Below are positions 20,694 through 48,346 of a stretch of DNA of 64,000 nucleotides, piece by piece. Both the position numbers and the translations under genes were made by a program. Under the pieces are notes generated by a model. That model was not told the origin of the DNA. It worked only from the letters and a program-made list of their open reading frames with translations, and did not search any database. The DNA comes from a virus, in the IMG/VR virus record IMGVR_UViG_3300025874_000006, positions 74,352-138,351 of that record; one strand, written 5' to 3'. Positions within the stretch are counted from its first letter, which is position 1; each line of letters opens with the position of its first letter.

Positions 20694-23600
20694 TTATTCC
20701 TCTAGTTGTGCAACACGGTTGCGCAATGATTGTATTTCTTTGATTAACATTGGGACTAGCTTGCTGTAGTCCACACCCATCATCTCTTCTGAGTCTTCTG
20801 GTACTGATACAGATTCCGGTGCTACCTCAAGTAGCTCCTGTGCCACCATTCCGTACTTCTGGTGTGACCCGTCAGCTTTCCAGTCAAATGAACGTACTTG
20901 GATAGCGTCAATGTCGTCAGAAGCAGAAGGGGCATCTACGATGTTTTCTTTGGCTCGCTCGTCAGAAGTCGTGTTAAACAAAATCTGAGAAGTTCCATGC
21001 TGAGTAATAGACCCAAGTTGAGAGGTGTTATAAGTGAAAGCCATAAAGAGGCTGCCCGACCCAGTGCCATTAGCATGACGAACATAAATATTAGAGTCAG
21101 CCGCTTGTCCAGAAAGTGATATTCCAGATTGCGCACCCGGCCCTTCTACAGTACCGCCCACCAACAAAGCGCCTGAGTTATTAATAGTCACAGCAGTATT
21201 CCAGCTTATAGCTGAGTTTGCTGAACCTGAGGCGGCTACTTTAAACTCTTGCTTACCATCAGCAGTATGTGCAATCTGAGCGGAAGTATTGGTGTTTATA
21301 CGTTTCCAAGAGCCATCATAATATGCGTTCGTATTAAACCAAGTTGAAGTTCCGCCCGATTCACCCGCAATAGAAGAACCTGTTCCTACCCGTAGAACTT
21401 TAAATACAGAAGACCACGCCTCTGGAGTTACACCAAGACCCAAGCGACCTGCGCTATCCAGCCTAGCGCGTTCTGCGCCACCAGTACTGAAGCCAAGAAT
21501 GTCAGCGCCGCCGAAGAACAGACCAGTGTCGGTGTCTACATGGCTTGTAATAGATGGGTTGCTATTTTCTCCAGCGCCTGCTATTACTTCGCCTGATAGG
21601 AAGATGTCTTTGAAGCGATACGCTGCCGCGCCTAACGATTCTGTTCCATCACTGAGAGCAGCAGTTTCATTCGTTGGGTAGATTGCATTAGTAGTAAAAT
21701 GCAGACCTGCGCCACTTGCGTCTGCCCTGTAAATGTAACTGGCTTGCACTGCGCCTGATAGGTAGAGGTTTTTGAACCTATGACTAGAAGCTCCTAAATC
21801 AATAGCGGCATCTCTCTGTGCGCCATTGGCGGTTGCAGGATAAATACCGTCACCACCACCTGCAAAGTTTAACCCTACATCATTACTCACAATATAAAGG
21901 TTTCCTGCGGCAGCACCAATACTACCTACGGCTGCACCGTCTTTCATCCACTCAGAAATTGTGCCGGCAGAACCTGTCCTGTTAAATGTAGTTACAACAT
22001 TACCGACACGAGTTGCCTCAATCTTACCCTTGGTTCCTTCAAGTCGTATGCCTTGCGTTCCGATATCTGTTGTAAGTTTACCCACCAACAGGTTGCCTTC
22101 GCCATCAATTCGGGCGCGTTCTGTTGCAGCACCACCAGTAGCAAACTTAATATGGTCAACGTTTTCAGCAGACTTTGTAGAAATTAACAGGCTTCGCTCT
22201 GTGGTGTTGTAAGTAAAGCCAGCGTTGTAACTGCTATTTAAATACCATCCCCACGTTTGATCAGCAAATCCACCATCAAGGTTATAGGTGGGGTTTGTCT
22301 GCCCTGCAATACCCACGCGGCCTGCGCTGTCTATGCGCATTGCTTCTACTGGAGAAGTAGTCCCAGCAAGCCCTTGAATTAAGTTGAAAGTCATAGCCGC
22401 GTTATTAGAACCACCATTCCAAGTACCAATGCCTTCAACATCAATAGACCCAACAATACCCGATGAGTTTGTTGAATTGTCATCAGAGTAAAACTCAACA
22501 GAGCCTATCGTTGGGATGGTATCAATGCCTGTGGCGCTTCGTAAGCGTAGTCTAGCTCCGTCTGCATTGGACGAGTCTTTTAAATCAACTAGCCTTGCAG
22601 GCGAACTAGTACCAATACCCACGTTTTGAGATGAGTCTATCGTGATAGCTGGAGAAGCACCCGTTGCTAACTTCATAGTGTCTGTATTGTGGTCGTAGCT
22701 TACATAGCCTCTGTATCTTTCATTGCCACTTGTTCCGTCTGCAAATAAAAGATAATTGGTATCTGTTGTAGCATTTGACCTGATGGTGATACCGCCTAAG
22801 TTAACAGAAGAATGCACTACTAGCTGTGGAGAAAAGTAACTTGAAGGACTGCTAGTGCCGATACCCACGTTGCCTGCGCTGCTCAAGGTCATCACTGTCT
22901 TATCTAAAGAGCTTGCGTTAGACAACCTAAAGTTAATGCTCTGACCAACAACACTGTGGTCAATATAGGATGCGCCTGTTGGTTTAAAACGGATATAGTT
23001 ATTGGCGTATTCAGTGTCATTAGTACCAACCTTGAGCAAGCCTGAAGTGTTTACGTCACCTGTTACGTCTAGAGATTTGTTGAGATCCCAAGTTTGGTTA
23101 GACTGGTTCCAAAGCATAGAGGCACCAGAACCGTCAACTACGATACCTGAACCACCTGATAGTGATTCTAGTTGACCATGTCCTACAGTGATGGTCTTGT
23201 CTGCAACATCTAGGTCAGTAACATTGTACTGGTTAATACCACCACTAAGATTCAAAGAACCTGTAAGTGAAAGGTCACCTGTTATGATAGTGTCTGCGTC
23301 AACGTTGACCGCGTCAGAACTTTCTGATACACTAGGAAGACCAATGTCACTTGGAGTAGATGCAGTAGCATCTTGACCATCTTGACCAGCAGGGCCAGTT
23401 GCACCAGTTTCGCCCTGTGGGCCTTGTGGGCCAGTAGAACCTTGTACACCAGCAACACCGGCAGCACCAGTTTGTCCCTGAAGACCTGTTAGACCTTGTG
23501 GGCCTTGTGGGCCTTGTGGGCCAGTAGCACCAGTCGGGCCTGCTGGGATATTTGCGATAGAAGCGTTCAGTTCATTAACCGCTCCAATGATAGTAGTTGC

Positions 23601-23924
23601 GTTGGTATCAAGAGAACCCGAACCTATAGCTGTCTGTAAAGCAGTCACCGCAGCAGATGTGTTTGAAATTAAAGTTTGTAGGTCACCGTCTGCCGATGAA
23701 AACGCAGCAACAATTTCTTGGAGAGTATCCAGTTGTTCTGGCGAACTTCCCAATATTGCATCAATTTGTGACTGAAGACCATCAATTTCCGAAGAAGAGA
23801 CCGCTTCACCAGTGACAGCAGCTACAAGAGTACCATCAGCATTAATTACTAATTGTCCTCCTACTACGACTTCACCAGTAATGTCGACACCATTCTGTAT
23901 TCTAAATTTTTTGTTAAAAGCCAT
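20694..23924 (-). CDS. Tail fibre with short collagen-like segment and C-terminal intramolecular chaperone (peptidase S74-like)
   Basis: [13 protein letters not shown] collagen tract; repeated [10 protein letters not shown] modules; C-terminal [39 protein letters not shown]. Confidence 0.88.
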
Positions 23925-30851: not shown

Positions 30852-31208
30852 TTACCTTGTTACCGAAGGATTAACTTTTATTTTACCTTCCAACACTCTT
30901 TCTATAATAGTGTTGCCTTCTCCATCGACATAACTTATCTCGACATCATAGACATATCTACCACGAGCAGATAGTAAATCGGTTTGGAGGTTAGATAGGG
31001 ATATAGTAACGACACCACTTGTTGAGGGTTCTGCTACGATAGCAGTGAAATCAACAGTATTGTCGGCAGTGCTTTTGAAGGTTTTCTTCATTTTAGCAGC
31101 AACCGAATACCCAGTGAGGTCTTTTGTTGATTCGTCAGGGTCTACTAGTTCTATTTGCAAAGCAAAATCAGAACCCTGATCGATTGTGAAATCTTCGTAA
31201 GTCGCCAT
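30852..31208 (-). CDS. Small Ig-like baseplate/virion protein
   Basis: TIDQGSDF..DLTGYSVAAKMKK..GRYVYDVEI..RVLEGKIKVNPSVTR, a pattern common in marine T4-like phages; late promoter at 31249-31256. Confidence 0.7.
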   Translation of the reverse strand: MATYEDFTIDQGSDFALQIELVDPDESTKDLTGYSVAAKMKKTFKSTADNTVDFTAIVAEPSTSGVVTISLSNLQTDLLSARGRYVYDVEISYVDGEGNTIIERVLEGKIKVNPSVTR

Positions 31209-31285: not shown

Positions 31286-31993
31286 TTATTCCGCAGAAGA
31301 GATATCTGCTAGAACCATCTCACGGAAATCTGCTGATTCGTCTGACCAGTCGAATACGTAAGATACTGTGCAACGCCAATCGTCTGTAGATGCAGCGTGA
31401 TACATTACTTTGTCTGACTCATCGTAATGTCCAAAGTATGCTGCTTTACAAGTCCACTTACCAGCTTCATCTTGACAACGTACCACTTCCTTTGTTTCAG
31501 GATGGATGTAGTCGAAGTAACCAGAACCATCTTCTGAGTAAGAGAAGATTAAGTTGAAGCCTGGAGCGTTAGCATTGTTGTGCCAAGAGATGAATCCACC
31601 TGGCGGATATACTGCTGCAAGAGCATTATGTTTAACGGATAAGAAGTTCATCATCTTATCGTTTAAGTCACGTAGGTGATGAGTCATGTCACGTTTGAAG
31701 ACAGGGTCAGCGTCCTTCTCAAACATTTGATGAGCACGGTCAGAAAGTTTGAAGTTGTAACCGACCAACTGGTCTGGGAAACCTTCGTGTTCTTTTCCTT
31801 GCCCAACAATCTCTTCCATGTGCACAGGGCCTACGTAAAAATTACGTTGACGTTTATGTTGTGCAGAAGTAAGGTGACAGTTTTCTTCAAAACCGTTTAT
31901 GGTATGCAACTTGGAGTATTCGTTTAGAATTTCAAGCAGTTCAGGGTTATTAACCTCAACATGCTTGAGATATTGGTCGTTTACCTGTGTCAT
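31286..31993 (-). CDS. 2OG-Fe(II) oxygenase-like protein
   Basis: YPPGGFISWHNNAN, distal His YHAAS, RCTVSY; HxN in place of the canonical HxD. Confidence 0.65.
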   Translation of the reverse strand: MTQVNDQYLKHVEVNNPELLEILNEYSKLHTINGFEENCHLTSAQHKRQRNFYVGPVHMEEIVGQGKEHEGFPDQLVGYNFKLSDRAHQMFEKDADPVFKRDMTHHLRDLNDKMMNFLSVKHNALAAVYPPGGFISWHNNANAPGFNLIFSYSEDGSGYFDYIHPETKEVVRCQDEAGKWTCKAAYFGHYDESDKVMYHAASTDDWRCTVSYVFDWSDESADFREMVLADISSAE

Positions 31994-32742
31994 ACGATTG
32001 GAGTATCCTTATTTAAACCTGCTGAGAAGTGACGTATAATCACTGGGCCCGTTTCAGGTTTTGTGATCGCCCAGTTAAGAGCGTTATAATAGTTCCACCT
32101 CAAGTCGTCATCGAAGATACCAACCTTGAGATCCTTATATTTTTCTTCTTTGTTGGTCAACCACCAGAGAGAGAACTGATCCCAAGACTTGAGACTGTCC
32201 GCATATCCTTTTGGCCACCAAGTATCGTTCATTTGTCTGAACGTTAAGTCCCACCAGTCATCCATGAATTCACGGACAATCGGTTTAGACATATCATATA
32301 AACAGACAGCACCACATAATGTGAATTTAGAAACTCCCTCTGGAGTATCAAAATCTCTTTCCGCGTAAATATAGTCACGGTCATCTGTAAGGGCGGTGAA
32401 TACCACATCGTGGTCTTTCATCTCATCCCATACCTTGGTGATGTCTTCATGCTCAACTTCCATGTCAGCATCAATATACATCGTTATATCGTATGGTGTT
32501 TTTGCCATACCATACAACTTAGCGCGATAGTGGTCGTCACATAATATAATATCATCCGCAACGTCGCGACCACGGTCATCTAGGAACCTTTCTTCAGTTA
32601 CTAGACATATTTTACAATCGTCTTCTGGTTCATAGTAATCTCTTAGAGACTCTGCCAGATTGATTGCATACAAGTAAAAGTTGCGTTTCTTAGACGCAAC
32701 GATTATAAATCCTTTACTCTTTTCCATCTGTCTCGGCCTCAA
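31990..32742 (-). CDS. Glycosyltransferase-like protein (GT-A fold, DxD)
   Basis: TPYDITMYIDADM, WDQFSLW, WNY..IIRHF; resembles GT8-type nucleotide-sugar transferases. Confidence 0.7.
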   Translation of the reverse strand: MRPRQMEKSKGFIIVASKKRNFYLYAINLAESLRDYYEPEDDCKICLVTEERFLDDRGRDVADDIILCDDHYRAKLYGMAKTPYDITMYIDADMEVEHEDITKVWDEMKDHDVVFTALTDDRDYIYAERDFDTPEGVSKFTLCGAVCLYDMSKPIVREFMDDWWDLTFRQMNDTWWPKGYADSLKSWDQFSLWWLTNKEEKYKDLKVGIFDDDLRWNYYNALNWAITKPETGPVIIRHFSAGLNKDTPIV

Positions 32743-33181
32743 GCTGAAGTTGGTCTTGTAAAATCATAATTGACCACATGTCCACTTCAATCCTTGATTT
32801 TGCCCGGCGCAACTTTGCCTTCAACTTACGGTTCTTAGAGTTTTTAATCTCTTCAACTTCAAATGCTTCCAACTTATAGTTGAATAACTTCTCAAGCTTT
32901 CGTGCCTTTTGATGTTCATCTTCACGAATTTTTTCTTCTTCAACTTGTGCCTTCTTACGGACAACCCTATCTGTAGTTTCCCTATCGACAGCGTCTTCAC
33001 CCAAGGCATCAATTACTTCATTGAATAATTCGTTCTCACTACCGTCCTTATCGTGACGATGTAAAAACATCTGTTGGCGTGTAACTCGACCAACGTCATC
33101 TTCAAGTTCTAGGATACAGTTCAGTTCTTTCTTTTCTTCTGTTTCCCAGAATGCATTATCCATCCACTGCTTACGACTCAT
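32714..33181 (-). CDS. Hypothetical protein
   Basis: 155-aa charged helical ORF overlapping the start of the GT-like gene. Confidence 0.75.
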   Translation of the reverse strand: MSRKQWMDNAFWETEEKKELNCILELEDDVGRVTRQQMFLHRHDKDGSENELFNEVIDALGEDAVDRETTDRVVRKKAQVEEEKIREDEHQKARKLEKLFNYKLEAFEVEEIKNSKNRKLKAKLRRAKSRIEVDMWSIMILQDQLQLEAETDGKE

Positions 33182-33228
33182 TAAATATCTCCAGAGAGTT
33201 CAATTCAAATTATAATGTATATAGTGTT

Positions 33229-33268
33229 GAGATAAGTGGGTCAAATGAATGACCCACCGTTCTATCTC
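33229..33268 (-). other. Intergenic hairpin between the repeat-fibre gene and the downstream enzyme genes
   Basis: GTGGGTCA-TTCATT-TGACCCAC core, extended by GAGATA/TATCTC; no U tract. Confidence 0.55.
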
Positions 33269-33291
33269 ATATTATACCACAGTACAGTCGA

Positions 33292-36200
33292 TTAAGCAAC
33301 CCGTACGTATAAGGTATATGTTTCTGGGGTGTCGAATGACGTTCCACTAATCGTCTCACCGGCATAATTACCAGTGAATGAACGAGAGTAATTACCAGCG
33401 AAGTCATTGTTATAGTTTCCACCGAATGTACGAGAGTAGTTACCCACGAAGTCACCAGCATATGCAGATGCACGATTGCGAGAGTAAACACCAGTATATG
33501 ATGAATTACGTATTCTTGCGTAAGCTGATACGCGAACTCTAGCGTAATCACCAACGTAATCAGTGGAGAATGTGCCAGCATACTCACCAACAAATCCACG
33601 TGAATAGTTTCCTACAAAGTCACCTGTGTAATCGCGAGTGTAATTACCAATGTAATCACCAGTGAAGGTGGTTGCATAATTACCAGTGAAGTTACCTACA
33701 TATTCGCGAGAATACGTTCCTACGTAGTCACGTGAGTAGTTACCAGTGAATGTATTGGAATATGTTCCACTATATTGACCAGAGAAGTCACGTGAGTAGT
33801 TACCAATGTAGTTACCACCAAATGCACGAGTGTAAGTACCAGCATAAGCTCCAGCATACTCACCAACAAACGTTCGGTTATAGGTACCAGTGTACTCACC
33901 AGTAAAGCCGCGGGAGTAGTTGCCTACGTACTGACCAGAGAATTCACGTGAGTAGTTACCAATGTAGTTACCACCAAAGTCACCAACGTAATTACCGACA
34001 AAGTTGCCAGCGAAGTCACGAGCATAATCCCCCGCGAAAGTACGGGAGTAATTACCGGCAAAGTCACCTGCGAAATCAGTTATACGGTCACGAGAGTATG
34101 TTGATGCTCGGTTATTCACATATGAAGACACACGAGTGGTAATATATGCGGAGTAACGAGTACGAGCAGAGGCACGGGTATACTCACCAATGAAGTCTCC
34201 GGCATACTCACCCGCAAATCCACGTGCGTAGTCACCAACAAAATCACCAGCAAAACCACGAGCATAATTACCTACGAAGTTCCCACCGAAGTTAGTTACT
34301 CGGTCTCTAGTGAATGCACCAGAATAGTCTGTAATGCGAGTACGTGCGTAAGATGAAGAACGATTGAGAATAGAGTCACGAGTACTTGTGCGAGCATAGT
34401 TACCTACGAAGTCGCCAGCATAGTAACCGACACGAGTATAGTTACCAGTGTTGGTAAATGTCTGAACACGGTTACGGGTATATGCAGCTGCATAGTTGCC
34501 AGTGTAGTATAATGTGCGAGTATAGTAACCAGTATTTGTAGAAGTACGAGTACTTGTACGAGCATAAGCTCCATTATAAGTGCCAGTGCGGGTACGAGCA
34601 TAGTCACCGACATAGTACAATGTCGCTGCACGGTTGCGAGAATAGTCACCAGCGTATGAGAACGCACGGTTACGAGTGTAGTTACCAGTATAGGTGGCAC
34701 CACGAGTACGAGCATAGTCACCAGCGAAGTTACCAGTAAAGTTAGTTACACGGTCACGTGAGTAGTTACCAGTATATGACGCGGCACGAGTACGACTATA
34801 GTCACCAACAAAGTTGCCAGTATATACGGTTGCACGATTACGTGAGTAATTACCTACATATGAGAATGCGCGGTTACGACCATAGTTACCAGTATAGGTG
34901 GCACCACGAGTACGGCCATAATTACCAGCATAGTATAAAGTGCGAGTGTAGTTACCAGTATATGACGCGGCACGAGTACGACCATAGTTACCAGTATAGG
35001 TGGCACCACGAGTACGAGAATAGTCACCAACGTAGTACGCTGTTACGGTGTTACTAACATAGTTACCAATGTAGTTACCAGCAAAGTTGCCAGTAAAGTT
35101 GCCAGCATAACTACCACCGCCGGGAGGAGTCGTTCCGAATCCAGTACCCCAATAATAAGAATATGCGGCCGCATAATTAGTATCCCTATAGTAAGTATTT
35201 GAACCATATGGGTTAGCAACTACAACGGATGTTACTAAAAGGGCATCAGAATAATGACTGAAGTACTGACTATATCTCAGGTATCCACCAATGTGTATCT
35301 TAAGCGTACCTGAGTTATTTGTTGAAGCGAAAACTTCCCAAGATGTGCCTGGGTTGGTCGATGAGTTACCAGTATATGCATATTGACCATTAGTACCACC
35401 AGTCGTAGACGTGCGAGTAGAAGTACGAGTACTTGTACGAGAATAGGTAGTAGATCTAGTGTAATATGAAGTTGCGCCTACACGAGTTCGACCATAGTTA
35501 CCAACGTAAGAAGCAGCCCGGTTACGAGAATAGTCACCAACGTAAGAAGCAGCACGTGCACGAGTATATGTTCCAGTACCTGTCCCAGTTCTTGCGTAAT
35601 CACCAACGTAAGACGCAGTACGGTTACGAGAATAGTTACCGGCATAAGAACCAGTACGAGTGCGACCATAGTTACCTACGAAGTCACCAGTGTAGTTTGT
35701 TACACGAGTTCGACCATAGTTACCAACGTAAGAAGCAGCCCGGTTACGAGAATAGTTACCTACGAAGTTACCGGCATAGTCTGTTACACGAGTTCGACCA
35801 TAGTTACCAACATAAGATGCACCACGTGCACGAGTATATGTTCCACCATAAGTGCCAGTACGAGTTCGACCATAGTTACCAGTGTAAGTGACACCAGTGG
35901 TACTTGTGCGAGCGTAGTTACCCACGTATGAGAATGCACGTTGACGAGCATAGTTACCTACGAAGTCGCCTGCATAGTACAATGTACGAGAGTATGCTGG
36001 AGTAGCAGAGTAGTCCGCTGAATAGTTACGAGCATAGTTGCCGGTAAAGTCACCAACATAATATAGTGTACGAGTGTAGTTTAGTGTACGAGTAGAAGTT
36101 CTAGTAGAAGTTCTTGCGTATTCGCCTACGAAGTCACCGATATAGTTACCAACAAAGTTTCTTGCGTAGTCACCTACGAAGTCGCCAGTAAAGTTACGAG

Positions 36201-37956
36201 CGTAATTACCTACGAAGTTACCAGCAAAGTCAGTTACACGGTCACGTGCATATGCAGAGTAACGTGTGCGTGTTGATGTGCGAGCATAAGCTGAGTAACG
36301 AGTTCTAGCAGAAGCGCGAGTAGAAACACGAGCGTAGTCACCGATAAAGTCTCCGGCAAAAGCACGAGAATAGTTGCCTTCGAAATTTCGTGAATAATCA
36401 CCCACGAAAGTCCTTGCATAGTTACCTACAAAGTTGCCAGCAAAGTTAGTAACACGATTGCGGGTGTATGCAGATACTCTAGCGCGAGAGAAGACCCCTG
36501 CGAAGTTAGTTACACGATCACGAGAATATTCGGTGATGCGTGTACGAGTATAGTCTAGTGAATAAGAAGAAGTTCTTGTACGACTATAAGTGCCTGCATA
36601 AGCAGACCCACGAGTGCGAGAATAAGTCCCCGCATAAGCAGATACTCGGTTACGTGTATAAGTGCCACTATATGTTCCGGCATATGAAGAAACTCGTATG
36701 CGAGTGTAATCAGCGGAATAGGTTGAAGCACGAGTGCGTGAATATTCACCTGTGTATGTTGATACTCGGCCTCGTGTATAAGAAGATGGACGATTACGAG
36801 AATAAATTCCACTAAAGTAACTTACACGGTCGCGGGTATATGTTGATACACGTGCACGACTATAAGTTCCAGTAAAAGTTGCAGCGAAAGCAGTCAATCG
36901 ATTACGTGAGTAAGTTGAATTACGGGTGCGTGAGTAAGTTCCAGCGAAAGTTGAGTTACGTGTTCTTGTATACTCTCCGGTAAAGTCACGGGAGTAATTA
37001 CCTCCAAAGTCACGCGAATATACACCAGTGTACTCGCCTACAAATTCACGAGAGAAGTCTGCAATACGATTAGTGGTGTAAGAAGAAACTCGGTCACGGG
37101 TATAGGCTGATACTCTAGTACGCACATACGCAGATGCACGAGTACGTGAGTAATCGGCAGTAACGATTGAACGTTGAGTATTCTCAGCAGAACCACGTGG
37201 GGCCCATGTACCGGATGAAGTTGGAACACCTTGTGCAGATGAACGCAACTGGTATGAACCAATTTCACCTGCTGTCGCTCGAAGGGATTTAGCACGTTGA
37301 CCAAGAGTGTACTTGATCTCTGCGTCTGACATTTCTTTTAGACCATTAAACGATGAGGTACCGTCATAATCGGTCGCAACTGGACGAACTGTTGTAACAC
37401 CAGCTGGTGGCGTCGCAAGAGTAACTCTTTTCCAGATATGATAATTTACTGACGTACCGTCTCCCAGAGTATTGGAAAACACAGTATCAATGTGTTTAGC
37501 CCAGTCACCGCCTGGGGATGTGACAGAAAGTTCGAATGCACCTTGAAGACCTAAAGTCTCTAGATTTTTTAGTGCACGGTTGGTTAAGTTATCCAAATCT
37601 GCGTCTACCATTTCGTAGAAGCCTGGGTTTGGTTCAACTTCGTAATAACCGACAGGACGGACAAAATCAGTACCAGTTTCACTTGCAGAACCACCTACCT
37701 GTTTAAGGGTAGTAGTTACTGTAGTACCTGTGATGTTTGACAACGGGTGAGTACCCTCTGGTTCATTGTAGTACGTATCTACATATGAACCGATGCTAAC
37801 ACCATCAGTTAAACTGATATCACCGACATCACCAGCAGAGGCCTCTGCTAGTGCTTCGCCCACCTTTACAGCGAGATACATCTCTTCTGTAGGTGTTAAT
37901 TCCTGTAGGTCACCATTAGCATTTTTAATTTTTAGTGGTATACTAGATGCTGACAC
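33292..37956 (-). CDS. 1554-aa Tyr/Arg/Gly tetrad-repeat protein; predicted self-pairing long beta-hairpin fibre
   Basis: 268-aa N-domain, 585-aa repeat arm, 96-aa core, 585-aa repeat arm, 20-aa tail; own late promoter at 38007-38014. Confidence 0.85.
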   Translation of the reverse strand: MSASSIPLKIKNANGDLQELTPTEEMYLAVKVGEALAEASAGDVGDISLTDGVSIGSYVDTYYNEPEGTHPLSNITGTTVTTTLKQVGGSASETGTDFVRPVGYYEVEPNPGFYEMVDADLDNLTNRALKNLETLGLQGAFELSVTSPGGDWAKHIDTVFSNTLGDGTSVNYHIWKRVTLATPPAGVTTVRPVATDYDGTSSFNGLKEMSDAEIKYTLGQRAKSLRATAGEIGSYQLRSSAQGVPTSSGTWAPRGSAENTQRSIVTADYSRTRASAYVRTRVSAYTRDRVSSYTTNRIADFSREFVGEYTGVYSRDFGGNYSRDFTGEYTRTRNSTFAGTYSRTRNSTYSRNRLTAFAATFTGTYSRARVSTYTRDRVSYFSGIYSRNRPSSYTRGRVSTYTGEYSRTRASTYSADYTRIRVSSYAGTYSGTYTRNRVSAYAGTYSRTRGSAYAGTYSRTRTSSYSLDYTRTRITEYSRDRVTNFAGVFSRARVSAYTRNRVTNFAGNFVGNYARTFVGDYSRNFEGNYSRAFAGDFIGDYARVSTRASARTRYSAYARTSTRTRYSAYARDRVTDFAGNFVGNYARNFTGDFVGDYARNFVGNYIGDFVGEYARTSTRTSTRTLNYTRTLYYVGDFTGNYARNYSADYSATPAYSRTLYYAGDFVGNYARQRAFSYVGNYARTSTTGVTYTGNYGRTRTGTYGGTYTRARGASYVGNYGRTRVTDYAGNFVGNYSRNRAASYVGNYGRTRVTNYTGDFVGNYGRTRTGSYAGNYSRNRTASYVGDYARTGTGTGTYTRARAASYVGDYSRNRAASYVGNYGRTRVGATSYYTRSTTYSRTSTRTSTRTSTTGGTNGQYAYTGNSSTNPGTSWEVFASTNNSGTLKIHIGGYLRYSQYFSHYSDALLVTSVVVANPYGSNTYYRDTNYAAAYSYYWGTGFGTTPPGGGSYAGNFTGNFAGNYIGNYVSNTVTAYYVGDYSRTRGATYTGNYGRTRAASYTGNYTRTLYYAGNYGRTRGATYTGNYGRNRAFSYVGNYSRNRATVYTGNFVGDYSRTRAASYTGNYSRDRVTNFTGNFAGDYARTRGATYTGNYTRNRAFSYAGDYSRNRAATLYYVGDYARTRTGTYNGAYARTSTRTSTNTGYYTRTLYYTGNYAAAYTRNRVQTFTNTGNYTRVGYYAGDFVGNYARTSTRDSILNRSSSYARTRITDYSGAFTRDRVTNFGGNFVGNYARGFAGDFVGDYARGFAGEYAGDFIGEYTRASARTRYSAYITTRVSSYVNNRASTYSRDRITDFAGDFAGNYSRTFAGDYARDFAGNFVGNYVGDFGGNYIGNYSREFSGQYVGNYSRGFTGEYTGTYNRTFVGEYAGAYAGTYTRAFGGNYIGNYSRDFSGQYSGTYSNTFTGNYSRDYVGTYSREYVGNFTGNYATTFTGDYIGNYTRDYTGDFVGNYSRGFVGEYAGTFSTDYVGDYARVRVSAYARIRNSSYTGVYSRNRASAYAGDFVGNYSRTFGGNYNNDFAGNYSRSFTGNYAGETISGTSFDTPETYTLYVRVA
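33355..35109 (-). repeat. C-terminal repeat arm (585 aa of 4-residue units)
   Basis: Units such as YAGN FTGN YSRT RGAT; degenerate 12/24/36-bp DNA repeats. Confidence 0.9.
35398..37152 (-). repeat. N-terminal repeat arm (585 aa of 4-residue units)
   Basis: Units such as YSRT RASA YVRT RVSA FVGE. Confidence 0.9.
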
Positions 37957-38006
37957 AATATCGTCTCTCTTTAGCTAAAGTTAAATTTAAGGTTAATGAC
38001 GTAGTT

Positions 38007-38082: not shown

Positions 38083-38562
38083 TTAAATATCTAATGTTGG
38101 CCATACAACATCATCTAAAGAACCTACTATTGACATATCCAAAGTCTCTGTGATATCACGCAATTCTTGTCTATACGACATGATGGTTTGTCGTTCTTCT
38201 TCTGTAAAGGGAGAATCGACAACAAGCATCCAATCAGTCTCTATGATTTTTTGGTTGCGGACAAATCGTATTTCGTTAACAATATGTTCTATGTCCCATA
38301 CCCATTCACCGTTTTCCCACGTAGCGTATACATTTGGTTTTGGTGGAACCTCAATAAACATCTGGTCATCTTCGTCCCAGACGCGAGTATTCATGAACTC
38401 CATCTCGCTAAGGCCTTCCAAATCCCAAATCCTATGAACTAGTCTATCATCGTCTACGGAATGACCGTCTTCCGGATACATTCCATTATCCATGTCGGTT
38501 CTTACGATTACGCCTGCTTCTGTATGTATGGCGACTTTAGGGTGCATCTTATATCTCTCCAA
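38083..38562 (-). CDS. Tail fibre assembly chaperone-like protein
   Basis: C-terminal IRFVRNQKIIETDWM..DSP..YRQELRDIT..VVWPT motif of phage tail assembly chaperones. Confidence 0.85.
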   Translation of the reverse strand: MERYKMHPKVAIHTEAGVIVRTDMDNGMYPEDGHSVDDDRLVHRIWDLEGLSEMEFMNTRVWDEDDQMFIEVPPKPNVYATWENGEWVWDIEHIVNEIRFVRNQKIIETDWMLVVDSPFTEEERQTIMSYRQELRDITETLDMSIVGSLDDVVWPTLDI

Positions 38563-41825: not shown

Positions 41826-42051
41826 CTTTATCCTCTACTAAACGAAAAAGCAATTCTTTTATTTGATTCATATCAGTTCTTAGAGCGTCAACTTCGCTAG
41901 TTAGATTGATGATATGGGCTTCTTTTTGTTGCGTTACTATTTTTAGTTTTCTTGCTCTTTCTATTTCGTTTCTATTGGTATTTAGGATAGCACCAGTTCG
42001 TCTATCCCTCACTAAATTACTATGTCCACTGACTCGTTGATGTCTGTCCAT
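41812..42051 (-). CDS. Small conserved hypothetical protein
   Basis: GHSNLVRDRRTGAILNTN plus C-terminal coiled coil; coupled to the upstream baseplate gene. Confidence 0.75.
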   Translation of the reverse strand: MDRHQRVSGHSNLVRDRRTGAILNTNRNEIERARKLKIVTQQKEAHIINLTSEVDALRTDMNQIKELLFRLVEDKDEHR

Positions 42052-45000
42052 TATACCACCAGAGCAATCACTCGAAGGTCTCTAATGATAGGAGACTTAC
42101 TTGAGTTGGTAGACTTCATCTCAATCTTCACTTGGAATACCGAGAACAAGTCAGCGTCAACTGTATACTCGTAATCGCGGAACACTTCAGGGTCTTCGTC
42201 AGAAGGGATTATTTTATCCGTAGGTACTAATACCCAATCAATTACAGAGTCACCTTCAGAATCAACCTGATTCAAACTATCTTCATCAGCTGCAGTTCTA
42301 ATATAAACGTCAAACTCTGATGTTGAAGGTCGGTTCGCTGCAAATATAATCTTCAGACCCACCGAGGATTCGTCAACCACTGTAGGTGTAGTTATATGTT
42401 GTGCAGAATCATCGAGTCCGATAACATTCTCAAGAGTAAGAACCGAAGTCCTTTGTAGGTCAACAATCGGAGAGACCTTAGAGTCTTGGGTAGCCAAAGT
42501 GATAGAAAGTGACAAGTTAGGAGATGTCCCCGCATTGTCTTCTGTCGATACAACCTTCGGGGTGGTGTTGATATTAATATCATTCAAGAAAACTAATTGG
42601 TTTCCTGTACTGTTGTACAGGTTACTTGGAGTTCCAGAAGAACGACCACTTCCGTATGATGAACCTTCTGTAGTACTTCCTTGGGCAACAACGGTTGTTG
42701 TGTTCGGGGTAAGCGTCTGTATTAATGGAACGAACTGGTCAAACATAACTTGTTGAGATGCAGTCACGTCATTACCACCACCTACAGAACTACCGGACGC
42801 TAATGTTGTTACGTCTATAGTATACCCTTCCCAAGTTGGATTTATAACTTGGAATAGACCTTCTAGGTCAGATGTGAGTAACCCGCCTGTACCATTGGTC
42901 ACGTCCGATATAGACACGGTATCACCAGAAGTGAACCCGTGACCTTCATGGCTAACAGTAACCAGAGAAGAACCAGAAGTAGTTTCGAAAGGGTCTGTCC
43001 CTAGAGTGACCTTCGGTAAAGGTGCGTTATCAAGAAGAAGTGTTCCGGAAGCACTGAAGTCTGCACGGTCTAATTCGAACATGAGGTCTTTAGTTTGATC
43101 GGGTGTCCAAGTAAATCCGTTCTGTGATAGGAATAGTGAACCTAGAGTAGGTTGTTTAGATACCCTATCCTCTCTTGAACCAAATACATTCTTATAAGTC
43201 TCGGCAATATAAACGTTATACTCTACCGACTCTGCAAGTAGGATTATCGCATATTCTTCACCACTTGTCAAGTAAATTGGTTCATCAAACTCAACTATTG
43301 TTGCAGCTGCTTGGACATCTTCGATTGTTTCTGGGTTTGTCGCAACGGTAATATCAGCAGGGTCGATAAACTTAACTGCGCCAGGCAGAATAATGTTTGT
43401 AGGAATACCATTCTCTACTGAACGAATCTGTACCTGTAGTGGAATGTTTTGGTCGACAGTCTCAACGAAGATACGTGCCTTGGTCAAAAACATACCATTT
43501 GGATTTTCTATCTGGTCTACAAAGAAAGTCTGTGCAAGTGGGTCTCTTCGACCAGCACGTCTACCTACCAAACGAGTACTACGTACAGTTCTCTGTACGT
43601 TTTCAATTGTACCTGTAGAGGTGTAAGATGCACGAGTAGAACAAAGTGCTTCAGTTTCATCATCAACACTTACGTCTAATAGTTTAAATTCCTGTGTACC
43701 CGTACGGAAGTTTATGGCAGAAGTGTTCGGTAGGAAGAACGTACCGATTATCTCACCCTTAGAATCTGTTTCTAAAGTAGTTGATCCACCAAGAACAGCA
43801 GGGTATCCAGTTGCATTTGCATATTGGCTACCAAACTCTTGAGTATCATCAGAGAAGTTAGTTGCGGTTACTTCTTGTCGTACCCATGCACTGACATCAA
43901 CCCCACCAAAGAATGCGAACATTTTAGTATTAGGTCGTAGTCCTTTAACAGTAAAGTTGATTCTACGAGAACGCATGAACGGAACAATTTCTACGTTTGC
44001 TACTTGTTCACCGATGAAGTCTTGAATGCTTCGTGATGCTGTTCGGAAAGACACGTCTCTAGGTATTGTGGTAAACAAACCACTGTTACTGGCATTGTTA
44101 CTCAATCTACCCGAGCGCAAAGCTGGTCTAGTATCGAAATCTTCCGTGCGAGTTTCGTCAAATCTACGAATAGTAGTTTGCATGATAGGTGGTAGGTTAC
44201 GAGTCTCTACCCATTCATCTGATGATGGAGACAGGTTCATATGTCCTGTCTGAGTGATTACCGCAAATGGGTTGACGTTCATTGTACTAGTTGCTAACAA
44301 CTGTGACACCAACGAAACATCGATATATGGTAGAGTTACTAGATCACCCTTCTTAGTAACAGAAGTTGTATTGTCTGTACTATACACCATTCGTACGGAG
44401 TTCTCACGGAAAGACGGTTTCAACCGACCATTAGGGTCGATGGAAGCTCGGTAGTCCTGATTATCGATATCCGAGAAATCAAAGTTAGTAAAGTTGTCTG
44501 CGATGAATCCCGCCTTAGTTCTGGAAAGACCATTATCATCTAATACATTTAATGTATTGGTATTAGTTTCCAAAAGACTTAGTGTGGTCAATTCGTATAG
44601 ATCTTCTACTCTCTCCGATAGTTTGGAGATGTCTTTCATCGTAAATCGTTTGTTTGGAATATATGTGCTTGAAAGATCGGTGACTCCAAAAGTGTATGGA
44701 TTCAACTTGAACTTATACAACGCAAGAGAACCTGTAGGCACTTCTGGTTCACGTGGACTTTCAGCTGGTTCGCCTTGGACAACTTGTAACTCACCAAACC
44801 CAATGTCCCCTCGACTGTCTATAGCATTAGCAACAAGTATGTCGATACGAGGCAAGTAGTACGACATATTGTTGATAGTAATTGCCGAAGAATTCTGGGG
44901 TAATGGGAAAATGTCGAATTCGTTAGTGTAACTAGAAGTGGGTTTCCTGACTGGTCGGAAGTCTAGTACGTCACGTAGAGAAATCACTTCACCTGTAACT

Positions 45001-47003
45001 GTAGTATGACTAGGAATTTCATCATAGTCATCTAAGTCATATGAGTTTGCAGCAAAGTATTGTCCGATGTTCTCATGTACGTAGTAAGTAAACTCAACTT
45101 TGACCTGAGATTCTGCGCCAGAAGGTATATTATACCCAGGCTTGATAAGTACTTGCGCATTATCATAGAAGTTGTCTCGTTGACCACCATCTAATGTAAA
45201 CTGGTAAGTGATATCTTCCCAATCGTCTGTAGCTAAAAGTTTATGTTGAACGGATTGAATTTCTATTGCGTCCGCAACATCTAGAGTAATAGGTCGTCTC
45301 TCCCAGTCTACTGACGGTATATCTTGAGTCACTGTCGCAGCAGTTATGGTTTTCTTACGTGGTGCAGAGGTCACTTCTTCGAATGATAAGATTTTATAAT
45401 TTCCACCAGCAGTTAATCCGGTGTAAGTGCCGTTAGTCGTAGTTATAGGAAGAATAGGCCCAGCGTCTTCAGCGATTACCCAACTAGAATATTCAGTACC
45501 TGCTATAGTGATTTCACCACTAGAGTTTGCAGTTACTTCATGATATACCTGTATGGTATAGTTAGCAGTGATTGCATCCTTAGTCGGACTTTTACTAGGT
45601 AGAGGGAAGAGTAGGTTGTTGTCCGCAGTAGCATAAAGATTACTGTTGATAAGTGGCAACACGTCTCCTGACAAAGGGTCGTCCAGTTCAACTGCATCCG
45701 AGAAGTTTTCGGTACCTATTCGGCCGGTTTGATCGAATATACCGTTCATTAATATGTTGAATAGGTAGGCACGATATCCTGTAGCATCCTGTTCAATTGC
45801 TCGGATATTTGCATAACCAATGACATCGTTCGTTACATTTTTTATACGTACATAACCGAACACATCTAGACGACCGATACCTTGACAGTTATCTGCATCG
45901 ATGTACACATAGTTACCAAATCTAGCTTCAACATTCTCATTAGTTTTATCAATAGTGTCTCTTGCTTTTGGTACCGTTATATCCGTGGTGCCGATTTCTA
46001 GTCGATAACCGTCTACGTAAGCAATACCTTCGGTCACGTCTAGATTTAAGTTGGTGTCATCGAGTTCTTCAAAGATTGCTTTGAACTGTTCTACTACGTA
46101 GTCACCAGACTCTTCTTTAGTTCTTTGTGCGAGTAGATCGTTGATTCTATTGTAGGCATCGAACGTAGACACTTCGCGAGTGATAACTCCATCGACAACA
46201 CGTGCAATGAATACGAAGTTCTCTTCTTCTTCAACTTGTTCACGCGTGGTTGGAGTTAATTTAATTTGGTATCTGTGAGCGCCAGGAGCTGTTGCATTAG
46301 GAACCTCACCTTGGTTGTCATATAGACTATCGTCTTCACCTTCAGTGATGATTGTCTGTACAATTCGGAAACCTACATCAACTGTTGGTAGGGCACTATA
46401 CTTGTCGATGAAAGAACTACCACCTTCCATATAGACGAAGTGTCCCTGAACAAAGAAGTCACCAGCAGCAAAGTATGCTTTAGTTCCACGGCCAGTTGCC
46501 GGAATTGCACCGTCTGCGGCAACAGTGATACTAGATGACACCGTTCCGTCTAGTGCGACTAGAGTGTCTAGAGCAGAAATACGAGGAGCAACTGTATTGT
46601 CAGTTACTACCGAGGTGTCCATGTATTGGACATAAAGAGTTGCTGGGTCGGTTGCTGTCGCCTCTACTACCTCTACTACCTTTACCTCAATACCCTTATC
46701 AACAAGAGTGCCGTTAGTTAGGGTTTTACCTAGTAGGTCTGGGGAGAGGATGCTAACAGCATCTAGACGAATGTATTCTAATCTGTTATCTACAGTAGCG
46801 CCGCCTGGGTTTACCAGAGCACCTTCTTTGAAGATGTTACGGCCGAATCGTGCAATCTCTTCTTGGATGATTGTCTGAGACTCAATTAGTTCACGTGCCT
46901 GTAGTGCTCGTCCAGAGTTAAACAATACTCGATGATAACCATCTTCTTCTTTCCAGAAATCTCTGTATGTTTCTTCGAACGTTTTGTTTGTAAAATCTGC
47001 CAT
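42051..47003 (-). CDS. Large baseplate/virion structural protein (DUF4815 / VrlC-like)
   Basis: YHRVLFNSGRALQARELIESQ, LAQRTKEESGDYVV, EGIAYVDGY, LDFRP, DPLAQTFFV, SLFLSQNGFTWTPDQTKDLMF, PIIRDLRVIAL. Confidence 0.9.
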   Translation of the reverse strand: MADFTNKTFEETYRDFWKEEDGYHRVLFNSGRALQARELIESQTIIQEEIARFGRNIFKEGALVNPGGATVDNRLEYIRLDAVSILSPDLLGKTLTNGTLVDKGIEVKVVEVVEATATDPATLYVQYMDTSVVTDNTVAPRISALDTLVALDGTVSSSITVAADGAIPATGRGTKAYFAAGDFFVQGHFVYMEGGSSFIDKYSALPTVDVGFRIVQTIITEGEDDSLYDNQGEVPNATAPGAHRYQIKLTPTTREQVEEEENFVFIARVVDGVITREVSTFDAYNRINDLLAQRTKEESGDYVVEQFKAIFEELDDTNLNLDVTEGIAYVDGYRLEIGTTDITVPKARDTIDKTNENVEARFGNYVYIDADNCQGIGRLDVFGYVRIKNVTNDVIGYANIRAIEQDATGYRAYLFNILMNGIFDQTGRIGTENFSDAVELDDPLSGDVLPLINSNLYATADNNLLFPLPSKSPTKDAITANYTIQVYHEVTANSSGEITIAGTEYSSWVIAEDAGPILPITTTNGTYTGLTAGGNYKILSFEEVTSAPRKKTITAATVTQDIPSVDWERRPITLDVADAIEIQSVQHKLLATDDWEDITYQFTLDGGQRDNFYDNAQVLIKPGYNIPSGAESQVKVEFTYYVHENIGQYFAANSYDLDDYDEIPSHTTVTGEVISLRDVLDFRPVRKPTSSYTNEFDIFPLPQNSSAITINNMSYYLPRIDILVANAIDSRGDIGFGELQVVQGEPAESPREPEVPTGSLALYKFKLNPYTFGVTDLSSTYIPNKRFTMKDISKLSERVEDLYELTTLSLLETNTNTLNVLDDNGLSRTKAGFIADNFTNFDFSDIDNQDYRASIDPNGRLKPSFRENSVRMVYSTDNTTSVTKKGDLVTLPYIDVSLVSQLLATSTMNVNPFAVITQTGHMNLSPSSDEWVETRNLPPIMQTTIRRFDETRTEDFDTRPALRSGRLSNNASNSGLFTTIPRDVSFRTASRSIQDFIGEQVANVEIVPFMRSRRINFTVKGLRPNTKMFAFFGGVDVSAWVRQEVTATNFSDDTQEFGSQYANATGYPAVLGGSTTLETDSKGEIIGTFFLPNTSAINFRTGTQEFKLLDVSVDDETEALCSTRASYTSTGTIENVQRTVRSTRLVGRRAGRRDPLAQTFFVDQIENPNGMFLTKARIFVETVDQNIPLQVQIRSVENGIPTNIILPGAVKFIDPADITVATNPETIEDVQAAATIVEFDEPIYLTSGEEYAIILLAESVEYNVYIAETYKNVFGSREDRVSKQPTLGSLFLSQNGFTWTPDQTKDLMFELDRADFSASGTLLLDNAPLPKVTLGTDPFETTSGSSLVTVSHEGHGFTSGDTVSISDVTNGTGGLLTSDLEGLFQVINPTWEGYTIDVTTLASGSSVGGGNDVTASQQVMFDQFVPLIQTLTPNTTTVVAQGSTTEGSSYGSGRSSGTPSNLYNSTGNQLVFLNDININTTPKVVSTEDNAGTSPNLSLSITLATQDSKVSPIVDLQRTSVLTLENVIGLDDSAQHITTPTVVDESSVGLKIIFAANRPSTSEFDVYIRTAADEDSLNQVDSEGDSVIDWVLVPTDKIIPSDEDPEVFRDYEYTVDADLFSVFQVKIEMKSTNSSKSPIIRDLRVIALVV

Positions 47004-47011
47004 GATTAATC

Positions 47012-48346
47012 CTAAACGGTGATTACTATCTTGATGTCTTCTTGTTGTTCTGCGTCACGTCGTATTCTTGCTCGGTTCTCAATATATAGTACATCTCCTG
47101 AGAATCGATTTATACCATTTACTGATGACATAGATTCAATTTCTCCAGATACCGCAACACCTGCTTGGGATACAGATTCACCCACTTGAAATGCTTGGAA
47201 TCCAGTAGATTCATTTTGGTGGTAATGTACTACAGAACCAGCAGACTCATCCACGTGTGCAACTGCACCAGAGATTGCGCCTGTTATCGTCTTACCCGAC
47301 TCGAAAGGAGAAGAGTTGACAAGGGTAATTGTCGGTAGTACTTTAGCAGAGGTTGCTACGAAAGGTGAAGTGTCCGGAGCTAGTGGGTTCTTTACTACAC
47401 CCATCTGACGGAAAGTGTTCTCCACAACAAACGTGTCATCTACAACACCATCTGGTTTGATGTTCATAAGAACTGAATTTGTTTTCAAATCTTCTATAGG
47501 GTCGAAACCAATACCAGTTGCGCTGGTAACGATAGCACGAAGTTCGCAGTCGTATCCACCACCACCACCAACTTCAAATGATGCGGAGGAATACCCTGAA
47601 CCATAGTTGGTCATTTCAATTCTAGTTACCACACCTTCGGATACATGAGCAACAGCTGTTGCACCCACACCATTTCCGATTACGGTCAACGTAGGAGCTA
47701 CGGTATAACCCGAACCACCGTTCTCTACAGATGCACTGATAACCTGTCCACCAACTGCACCAAGTTTAACAGTAGTCTGTAGGTCTTCGATAGGGTCTCC
47801 CGTAGGAAGACTTGGTTCTGCTTCTTGGACAGGAATGTGATTAGACGATAGGAACTGGAAGATGGTCTCTGGTCGTAGAGAATATAGGAATTTCCATGTA
47901 TACCCGTCTACTGTAGTAAAGTGTTGTTCGTAAGGCACATTAAGCAGACCATAGTTAGGTTCTACCATAGATGGTTTAGGTGACCCGTCTAGGTTCTTAG
48001 CGTGGTCTAAGCAGATGTACACTTCCTTTGCATCGTTCAATACGTACCAAGGTGTGGTGTTCTCTGGGTCGACTGAATCGTCCCATCCGGCGTAAGTAGT
48101 ACCGGAAGACCAGTTTACTCTTTTCGCTACGAATGTAGACCCTTCTACTTTCTTGATTGATTGTAGGTTGTGACGAAACTCTCTTTCTTCAAATGGAGAG
48201 TCGATAGGGGATATAACCGTATCTTCTTGATTGAAGAGGTCAGACTTACCAATACCGATATAATATTCATTGGAAGATGTCTGGATATCAGTAAGGAGAC
48301 TTCTCGCTAAACTCCTACCCATTGTTTGTCTTACTATAGCTGGCAT
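47012..48346 (-). CDS. gp8: Baseplate wedge subunit
   Basis: YYIGIGKS, RVNWSSGTTY..WDD, YVLNDAKEVYICL, DGYTWKFLY, GDVLYIENR..R..EQQEDIKIVI. Confidence 0.88.
   Translation of the reverse strand: MPAIVRQTMGRSLARSLLTDIQTSSNEYYIGIGKSDLFNQEDTVISPIDSPFEEREFRHNLQSIKKVEGSTFVAKRVNWSSGTTYAGWDDSVDPENTTPWYVLNDAKEVYICLDHAKNLDGSPKPSMVEPNYGLLNVPYEQHFTTVDGYTWKFLYSLRPETIFQFLSSNHIPVQEAEPSLPTGDPIEDLQTTVKLGAVGGQVISASVENGGSGYTVAPTLTVIGNGVGATAVAHVSEGVVTRIEMTNYGSGYSSASFEVGGGGGYDCELRAIVTSATGIGFDPIEDLKTNSVLMNIKPDGVVDDTFVVENTFRQMGVVKNPLAPDTSPFVATSAKVLPTITLVNSSPFESGKTITGAISGAVAHVDESAGSVVHYHQNESTGFQAFQVGESVSQAGVAVSGEIESMSSVNGINRFSGDVLYIENRARIRRDAEQQEDIKIVITV

Follow-up and report, generated by a model that had tools for sequence, protein, structure and literature searches.

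A mirror-complementary repeat protein in the tail module of an uncultured marine T4-like myophage, probably a fold-back antiparallel beta-ribbon fibre

What could hold a very long and repetitive protein chain in one single register? The question is raised by P0001, a fibre-like repeat protein of 1554 amino acids (aa) with a GTG start, whose open reading frame (ORF) lies on the minus strand at 33292..37956 of a 64,000-nucleotide stretch of viral DNA (IMG/VR record IMGVR_UViG_3300025874_000006, positions 74,352 to 138,351; this whole stretch is called the window hereafter). A preliminary description of the locus had proposed that the chain is made of 4-residue units, that its two arms complement each other when one is read forward and the other backward, and that it folds back into one very long antiparallel beta-hairpin. 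The analysis reported here supports that interpretation: residue i of P0001 faces residue 1800-i across ~600 positions, with no net insertion or deletion. To judge from its sequence, the protein would be best explained as a fibre on the virions of a T4-like myophage, marine and uncultured.

The modular layout of P0001 is simple. Its division into an N-domain of residues 1-268, two arms, a core of 96 aa and a tail of 20 aa was exactly as first described, coordinates included, and all of its parts are on the minus strand. The N-terminal globular domain proper (residues 1-245; 37222..37956) defines the family and is followed by an outgoing base strand (residues 246-268; 37153..37221), which carries a conserved G-T-W and lies opposite the C-terminal tail; this strand is delimited by the conservation of G-T-W and by an AlphaFold2 strand at residues 263-307 of the homologue P0007. 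Arm 1 (residues 269-853; 35398..37152) consists of Y-x-R-x, R-x-S-x and F-x-G-x tetrads, and leads to a non-repetitive apex segment rich in Tyr, Trp and Gly (residues 854-949, 96 aa; 35110..35397), the presumed distal tip. Arm 2 (residues 950-1534; 33355..35109) is mirror-complementary to arm 1 at i+j=1800, and the C-terminal tail (residues 1535-1554; 33295..33354) ends in the conserved return strand ETYTLYVRVA.

Within the arms, the grammar is that of octads: a Y-x-R-x tetrad is followed by either R-x-S-x or F-x-G-x, with occasional Y-x-G-x variants, and the two resulting types (Y-x-R-x-R-x-S-x and Y-x-R/G-x-F-x-G-x) succeed each other in aperiodic order. One face of an arm is restricted to Y, F, R, G and S, and the opposite face is small or polar (T, A, V, N, D, S). 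The arms contain 158 Arg and zero Lys, His, Cys or Met, for a net charge of ~+86. Gly-X-Y collagen triplets are absent from P0001, its period being 4/8 with Gly only at each 4th or 8th position, and its repeat motif is found in none of the other ORFs of the window. A profile search of the full 1554 aa against Pfam-A and PHROGs returned 0 families, the N-domain included, which has no Pfam or PHROG match of its own.

How specific is the pairing between the two arms? When residues are compared directly, with no parsing into units, the antidiagonal i+j=1800 contains 0 Arg-Arg pairs and 129 pairs of Arg with Gly, Phe or Ser. In 20,000 shuffles of arm 2 by tetrad or octad, Arg-Arg pairs number 19.5±3.2 (minimum 7) and Arg-(G/F/S) pairs 58±6 (maximum 80-82), so that the observed pairing stands ~12 standard deviations (SD) from shuffles that keep both period and composition. 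Alternative in-phase antiparallel registers produce 9-39 Arg-Arg pairs: since the octad order is aperiodic, a slip of 4 or 8 residues results in 9-39 Arg-Arg clashes. The register i+j=1802 also has 0 Arg-Arg pairs. The comparison with shuffled and shifted controls had been set beforehand as the test, and the controls fail it. A parallel, solenoid-like register was also looked for and not seen: no parallel register is distinguished, the best having 68 Arg-(G/F/S) pairs together with 9 Arg-Arg. The partners of all 154 arm Arg residues are G (74), F (36), Y (21), S (19) and A, L or P (4), and never R, D, E, T, N or V; Tyr-Tyr accounts for 57 pairs on the antidiagonal, an aromatic ladder thus standing opposite an aromatic ladder. 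The second face, formed by the x positions, covaries beyond what unit type accounts for (p about 0.0002 and 0.03), as would be expected of edge-to-edge neighbours.

At the level of units, the pairs first given as examples were all recovered, and unit starts a and b obey a+b=1800. The rule that every unit with a non-aromatic start faces an aromatic-x-Gly unit without exception holds for 51 of the 59 such units (constant-frame units 1-104 and 133-140, facing F/Y/W-x-Gly), but not for the other 8, which form four unit pairs inside two local, mirrored frame slips; with the order of units shuffled, the compliance averages 40% and reaches 66% at most (20,000 trials). The mirror itself is real, although the code is not the one-to-one correspondence initially proposed, F-x-G units also facing Y-x-R, F-x-G and others. 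Once corrected, the hard rules are two: Arg is never opposite Arg, and aromatic ladder is opposite aromatic ladder. The tetrad frame slip of units ~105-132 (residues ~685-795) is mirrored in arm 2, after which the register resumes unchanged; the two arms therefore have the same length, to the single residue, over ~600 pairs. Mirror pairing even extends past the arms as delimited above, to about residue 251/1549.

An origin of the mirror at the DNA level was considered and ruled out. The P0001 gene contains no long inverted repeat, and along the mirror no more than 33% of the bases are complementary. Translated in antisense, arm 1 does not look like arm 2, whereas the two sense arms are alike in the manner of repeat families. 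We know of no genetic mechanism that yields reversed protein sequences. With neither a cause in the DNA nor such a mechanism, the mirror must be kept by selection at the protein level.

Is P0001 alone in this? A search with the whole protein yields at least 166 relatives of 854-2654 aa, and one with the N-domain alone 331 cluster representatives (50% identity), all of them viral or marine metagenomic. They have in common the N-domain of ~250 aa and the C-terminal motif TYTLYVRxA, most full-length members also carrying G-T-W (54/121 and 71/126 relatives that also have the C-terminal motif); P0001 and its homologues share the same start and end motifs. P0001 itself combines all the family features: the N-domain, G-T-W, the C-terminal Y-x-L-Y-V-R, and reverse-complementary arms anchored at conserved ends. 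Each homologue at 30-45% identity shows a unique mirror of its own, and in it the partner of the C-terminus is the residue that directly follows the N-domain. The mirror sum S minus the chain length L is accordingly 246-261 in P0001, P0004, P0005, P0007-P0010 and others (S and L being 1136 and 876 in P0007, 1174 and 922 in P0010, and 1539 and 1290 in P0005). As had been anticipated, arm lengths in homologues are equal, once looped-out domains are set aside, and the arms covary. In P0005, arm 1 starts with Y-x-R-x-F-x-G-x and arm 2 ends with Y-x-R-x-R-x-S-x, the reverse of P0001, a flip of unit types that reads as a compensatory change. When each arm 1 is combined with its own arm 2, the score is 35-47 with 0 Arg-Arg; arms taken from different proteins clash, with scores of about 15-30 and up to 10 Arg-Arg (25 registers tried). 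Taken together, these data show the mirror code, and show that it is unique, that it is conserved and that it changes in a compensatory way.

To score more distant vocabularies, a log-odds pairing matrix trained on P0001 proved too specific, and a simple rule matrix was used instead. With long gaps allowed, the gapped fold-back score is more than twice that of the shuffled control in 114/121 relatives. Of these 114, 45 fold back globally from N-domain to C-terminus over 112-604 pairs, and another 24 form a second class in which an extra C-terminal domain of 150-300 aa follows the return arm; such proteins are ~1300-1500 aa long, have a longer N-terminal part and begin pairing near residue 345-405 (P0030, P0031, P0033, P0048, P0050, P0098, P0101, P0103, P0106 and others belong here). 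At the other extreme, minimal members of 397-500 aa are reduced to the N-domain and a bare, almost loopless hairpin of ~80 pairs. P0190 (420 aa) has a Phe-Phe ladder (F-x-G-T-F-x-x-x) with hardly any Arg, which makes the aromatic ladder the core feature and the Arg code an overlay. In periodic homologues, the ungapped listing of stems is ambiguous, such arrays self-pairing in many registers. A “structural protein” of Synechococcus phage S-RIM2 that had come up in tblastn was rejected as a spurious low-complexity match: this 1912-aa protein (HQ317291.1, 89978-95716) has a long array of G-N-V-T/G-D-L-T tetrads and is unrelated to the family.

The only GenBank phage with an orthologue is Phage C48C1, on which we found nothing in the literature; its baseplate wedge protein is 62% identical to that of the window, and the gene order is the same. 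Its orthologue has 3347 aa (OQ984149.1, 141011-151054; L002:612-10655) and is annotated in GenBank as a hypothetical protein. Its arm 1 (267-1305) runs without a break, and the pairing with arm 2 keeps to a strictly mirrored order, giving 1035 pairs with 0 Arg-Arg and a score of 756, compared to 281 when the tetrads of arm 1 are shuffled. Inserts of 115, 170, 158, 169 and 315 aa break up arm 2, and arm 1 has none; the five inserts coincide with non-repeat globular segments, and one 4-residue skip in arm 2 is offset by a 4-residue skip in arm 1. Domains that bulge from one strand, the other remaining unbroken, are what a physical duplex would predict, and would otherwise be hard to explain. Between the apex of P0001 and that of the C48C1 orthologue there is no significant similarity, and the apex is therefore variable. 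The orthologue also carries a tandem duplication of ~84 aa (…RKTRHRSYLYYSTDTS…SRNFSGQY, present twice) at roughly residues 2010-2160.

Structure prediction gives a first view of the base. AlphaFold2 was run on the homologue P0007 with a MAFFT alignment of 43 sequences and 2157 columns, in which the repeat region is poorly aligned. In the resulting model, the N-domain has a predicted local distance difference test (pLDDT) of about 90 and the C-terminal strand one of 76-96, only the N-domain and the base being confident. Two 45-residue strands, 263-307 and 829-875, face each other with numbering that sums to 1136-1138, precisely the register predicted from the sequence; the hairpin is confident over its first ~25 pairs and falls below 50 beyond. 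When the N-domain and C-terminal strand of P0007 are compared with solved structures by VIA-align, a weak likeness to MABP/beta-prism domains is seen (Z 6-7, ≤7.2), the alignments to solved domains spanning residues 44-876 and so including the C-terminal strand, while the 281-855 pair resembles the long hairpins of lysenin, iota toxin and phi29 (Z 3.0-3.7). Foldseek searches against PDB and BFVD return nothing at E ≤ 0.001.

What, then, would such a chain look like? It is probably a single-chain, fold-back antiparallel beta-ribbon fibre of at most ~200 nm, with an aperiodic code locking its register. The chain would exit the globular N-domain of ~250 aa and run outward as one beta strand (arm 1), beta-ladder geometry presumably continuing along the entire arm; the small variable apex of 96 aa, which may well be the distal tip, would turn it, and arm 2 of the same chain would return antiparallel and in register. 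The C-terminal ETYTLYVRVA strand would close the base by docking next to the G-T-W strand that leaves the N-domain. The product would be a two-stranded ribbon of ~600 residue pairs with an aromatic/Arg zipper face, where Y-Y rungs would recur each four residues and Arg would lie over Gly/Ser or be stacked on Phe/Tyr. In this ribbon, the code would act as negative design, or as an address: because any slipped register makes many Arg-Arg clashes, it would fix a single register, and hence one length. Binding surfaces would be held out at a distance from the baseplate by the apex or, in C48C1, by the inserted domains; the shaft, cationic and rich in Tyr and Arg, may be adhesive too, and we infer a role in host adsorption. 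The 190 nm initially calculated should be taken as an upper limit, that of an uncoiled ribbon. More tentatively, and with somewhat less than even confidence, the family could be generalized as a class of fibrous proteins not recognised until now, a self-addressed “beta duplex”: a single, possibly monomeric chain that would zip by a digital code into a two-stranded ribbon of 50 to ~340 nm, its length being set by the sequence and domains being spliced in as bulges of one strand, much as in an RNA stem.

The nearest precedent, as first suggested, is the short needle domain of gp37 at the tip of the T4 long tail fibre, reportedly described by Bartual et al. in 2010 (PDB 2XGF). Each chain of the needle reaches the distal tip and folds back, with the receptor-binding end at the turn and a chaperone gene nearby, as would be the case for P0001. 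The outgoing and returning segments of P0001 would be neighbours by the i+j=1800 mirror, and by the AlphaFold2 base of its homologue P0007. The needle, however, is an intertwined trimer of ~15 nm with seven iron ions bound by His-x-His, whereas the arms of the P0001 family are of 585 to >1000 residues, have no His and hence no His-x-His, and follow tetrad repeats and an Arg/Gly/aromatic rule; there is no sequence or profile similarity, and the P0001 fibre would be 10-20 times longer. The needle remains the known fold-back tip of the T4 long tail fibre (PMC6957217). The only solved objects resembling the modelled base are the hairpins of pore-formers (lysenin, iota toxin Ib, the phi29 tail knob), two-stranded and antiparallel over 30-50 residues; these are stable only within multi-chain barrels and are alternately hydrophobic, while the hairpin of the family is polar, cationic and 10-30 times longer. 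Two-stranded sheets can be stabilized by aromatic pairs across the strands on one face, by cation-pi contacts on the diagonal and by a bulky side chain covering a cross-strand Gly, as is known from designed tryptophan-zipper hairpins and from the “aromatic rescue of glycine”. The P0001 face shares these features, but the known examples are peptides of 12-16 residues or single sites, and we know of no natural protein in which the aromatic/Gly principle is repeated over hundreds of rungs. The triple beta-helix and beta-spiral (T4 gp5/gp12, adenovirus shaft) also have short, Gly-containing, beta-rich repeats (in gp5 the octapeptide V-x-G-x-x-x-x-x), but they are parallel, three-chain and intertwined and predict parallel periodic correlations rather than a mirror; such parallel folds are excluded for P0001 by the mirror. 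Neither a description of such a fibre in the literature nor a curated family was found, in agreement with the preliminary description, and we would count the architecture as new among fibrous proteins, although the functional class to which it belongs, that of phage fibres, is an ordinary one.

Several points weigh against the fold-back ribbon. To our knowledge, no solved structure offers a precedent for an isolated ribbon of two strands and hundreds of residues; on its own it may be unstable, and its arm charge of ~+86 may need counter-ions or partners. Phage fibres known so far are nearly all trimers, and pairing within a chain and pairing between chains are inseparable by sequence alone. 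For many members of the family whose repeats are more periodic or poor in Arg, rule scoring gives no unique register, and column mutual information anchored at the ends is weak because linker lengths vary. Prediction is also unhelpful beyond the base. The long antiparallel hairpin first proposed is supported by the mirror register and by the AlphaFold2 base of P0007, but the arms of that model, built with an alignment, have a pLDDT below 35; AlphaFold2 in single-sequence mode gives a pLDDT of 30 for residues 720-1080 (inner arms and apex), and ESMFold2 on the arm fragments 246-420 and 1380-1554 gives a score of 0.00 and a pLDDT of 26-34.

Might the hairpin be one of three? Three fold-back hairpins could form a six-stranded antiparallel tube or bundle, an elongated analogue of the gp37 needle in which the code would be the intra-chain seam, a reading that we consider less likely, though it is the main variant. 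Its appeal comes from known phage tail fibres, which are trimeric and chaperone-dependent, the gp37 needle trimer being held by seven iron sites (PMC3004832; PMC6957217). In the window, a tail-fibre assembly chaperone gene is the immediate upstream neighbour of the fibre gene (38083..38562, minus strand; PF16778, E value 8e-14; PHROG 4912), and it holds the same position in C48C1. In lambda, P2, Mu and T4, however, the chaperone gene follows its own fibre gene, so that the chaperone of the window may belong to the preceding tail-tip-like genes of 270-417 aa rather than to P0001. Likewise, the Arg-Arg-free register i+j=1802 might be a second seam, but its signal follows from the unit grammar and the 1800 code and is not independent. 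Trimerization is further disfavoured by the N-domain, which AlphaFold2 confidently folds as a monomeric globule, by the lack of a continuous hydrophobic stripe on either face (one has D/E/N alternating with V/A/T, the other is filled with Arg), and by arms devoid of the His or Cys that could form metal sites.

Pairing in trans, where arm 1 of one chain would meet arm 2 of another in head-to-tail antiparallel dimers or polymers, would obey an identical mirror rule, complementarity being blind to cis and trans. We hold it to be quite improbable nonetheless: the AlphaFold2 monomer model of P0007 closes the hairpin in cis with a high-confidence base, the central apex segment (or the domains found at the exact midpoint) fits a turn, the minimal members are no more than an N-domain and an almost loopless 80-pair hairpin, and for a virion fibre, a symmetric rod that carried an attachment domain at either end would be an odd design. 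That the mirror reflects no physical pairing, but is a by-product of composition, periodicity or DNA symmetry, has next to no probability: purely periodic Y-x-R-x-F-x-G-x arrays are indeed self-complementary in reverse at each 8-residue shift, but P0001 is aperiodic with one working register, shuffling with period and composition preserved falls ~12 SD short, there is neither inverted repeat nor antisense relation, and the compensatory flips, the clashes between arms of different proteins and the looped-out domains of C48C1 need selection on contact.

The fold-back fibre would be at home where its gene lies. The P0001 gene is within the tail module of an uncultured marine T4-like myophage, surrounded by baseplate wedge, tail-tip-like, chaperone, LtfC-like and collagen/S74 fibre genes, in the same order as in C48C1; the nearest cultured relatives besides C48C1 are cyanophages and Pelagibacter myophages, at ~27% identity. 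Immediately downstream is a three-gene cassette (155, 250 and 235 aa; 31286..33181, minus strand), which also adjoins the C48C1 orthologue (L002:10750-12630). Its 250-aa protein has only a sub-threshold GT2 match, the 235-aa protein has no Pfam match, and neither of these two has a sequence match in PDB; the cassette proteins could have an accessory or modifying role for the fibre. Next comes a 118-aa LtfC-like beta-sandwich protein (30852-31208, minus strand), a near-threshold match whose C48C1 counterpart is annotated alike; the LtfC-like domain is known from the assembly of the L-shaped tail fibre of T5. Farther away on the minus strand are two collagen-like fibres, one of 1076 aa (20694-23924) with collagen repeats and a C-terminal Peptidase_S74 intramolecular chaperone, the other of 824 aa and 25% Gly (49034-51508), and a DUF4815 protein of 1650 aa (42051-47003; E value 3e-55), which adjoins the baseplate wedge gene (47012-48346; PHROG 438).

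Positions 33200-38000 of the window are found at 80-100% word identity in seawater metagenomes from >10 studies (2014-2025). Marine metatranscriptome libraries contain pieces identical to it, which is no proof of transcription, and metagenome contigs are too fragmented over the repeats to link variants across the arms.

What would a fold-back ribbon mean? Only a handful of architectures are known for the fibres of viruses: coiled coil, collagen, triple beta-spiral, triple beta-helix and the short gp37 needle. If the fold-back reading is true, one more would be added to them, its register held by a readable pairing rule, and beta-sheet register would be encoded almost like base pairing in a natural system. 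The length of the fibre would simply be the number of pairs multiplied by ~0.33 nm; that of C48C1 would be ~340 nm long, with knobs at ~23, 50, 78, 101 and 193 nm from its base. Such a code would provide a blueprint and design rules for programmable long, thin and cationic protein nanofibres. It would also suggest a new modular way for fibres to evolve, nested inner cassettes being swapped while complementarity is kept. The finding would bear, too, on host recognition by a group of marine myophages that is abundant though uncultured; the group is present in many seawater metagenomes, and its fibre family counts several hundred sequence clusters.

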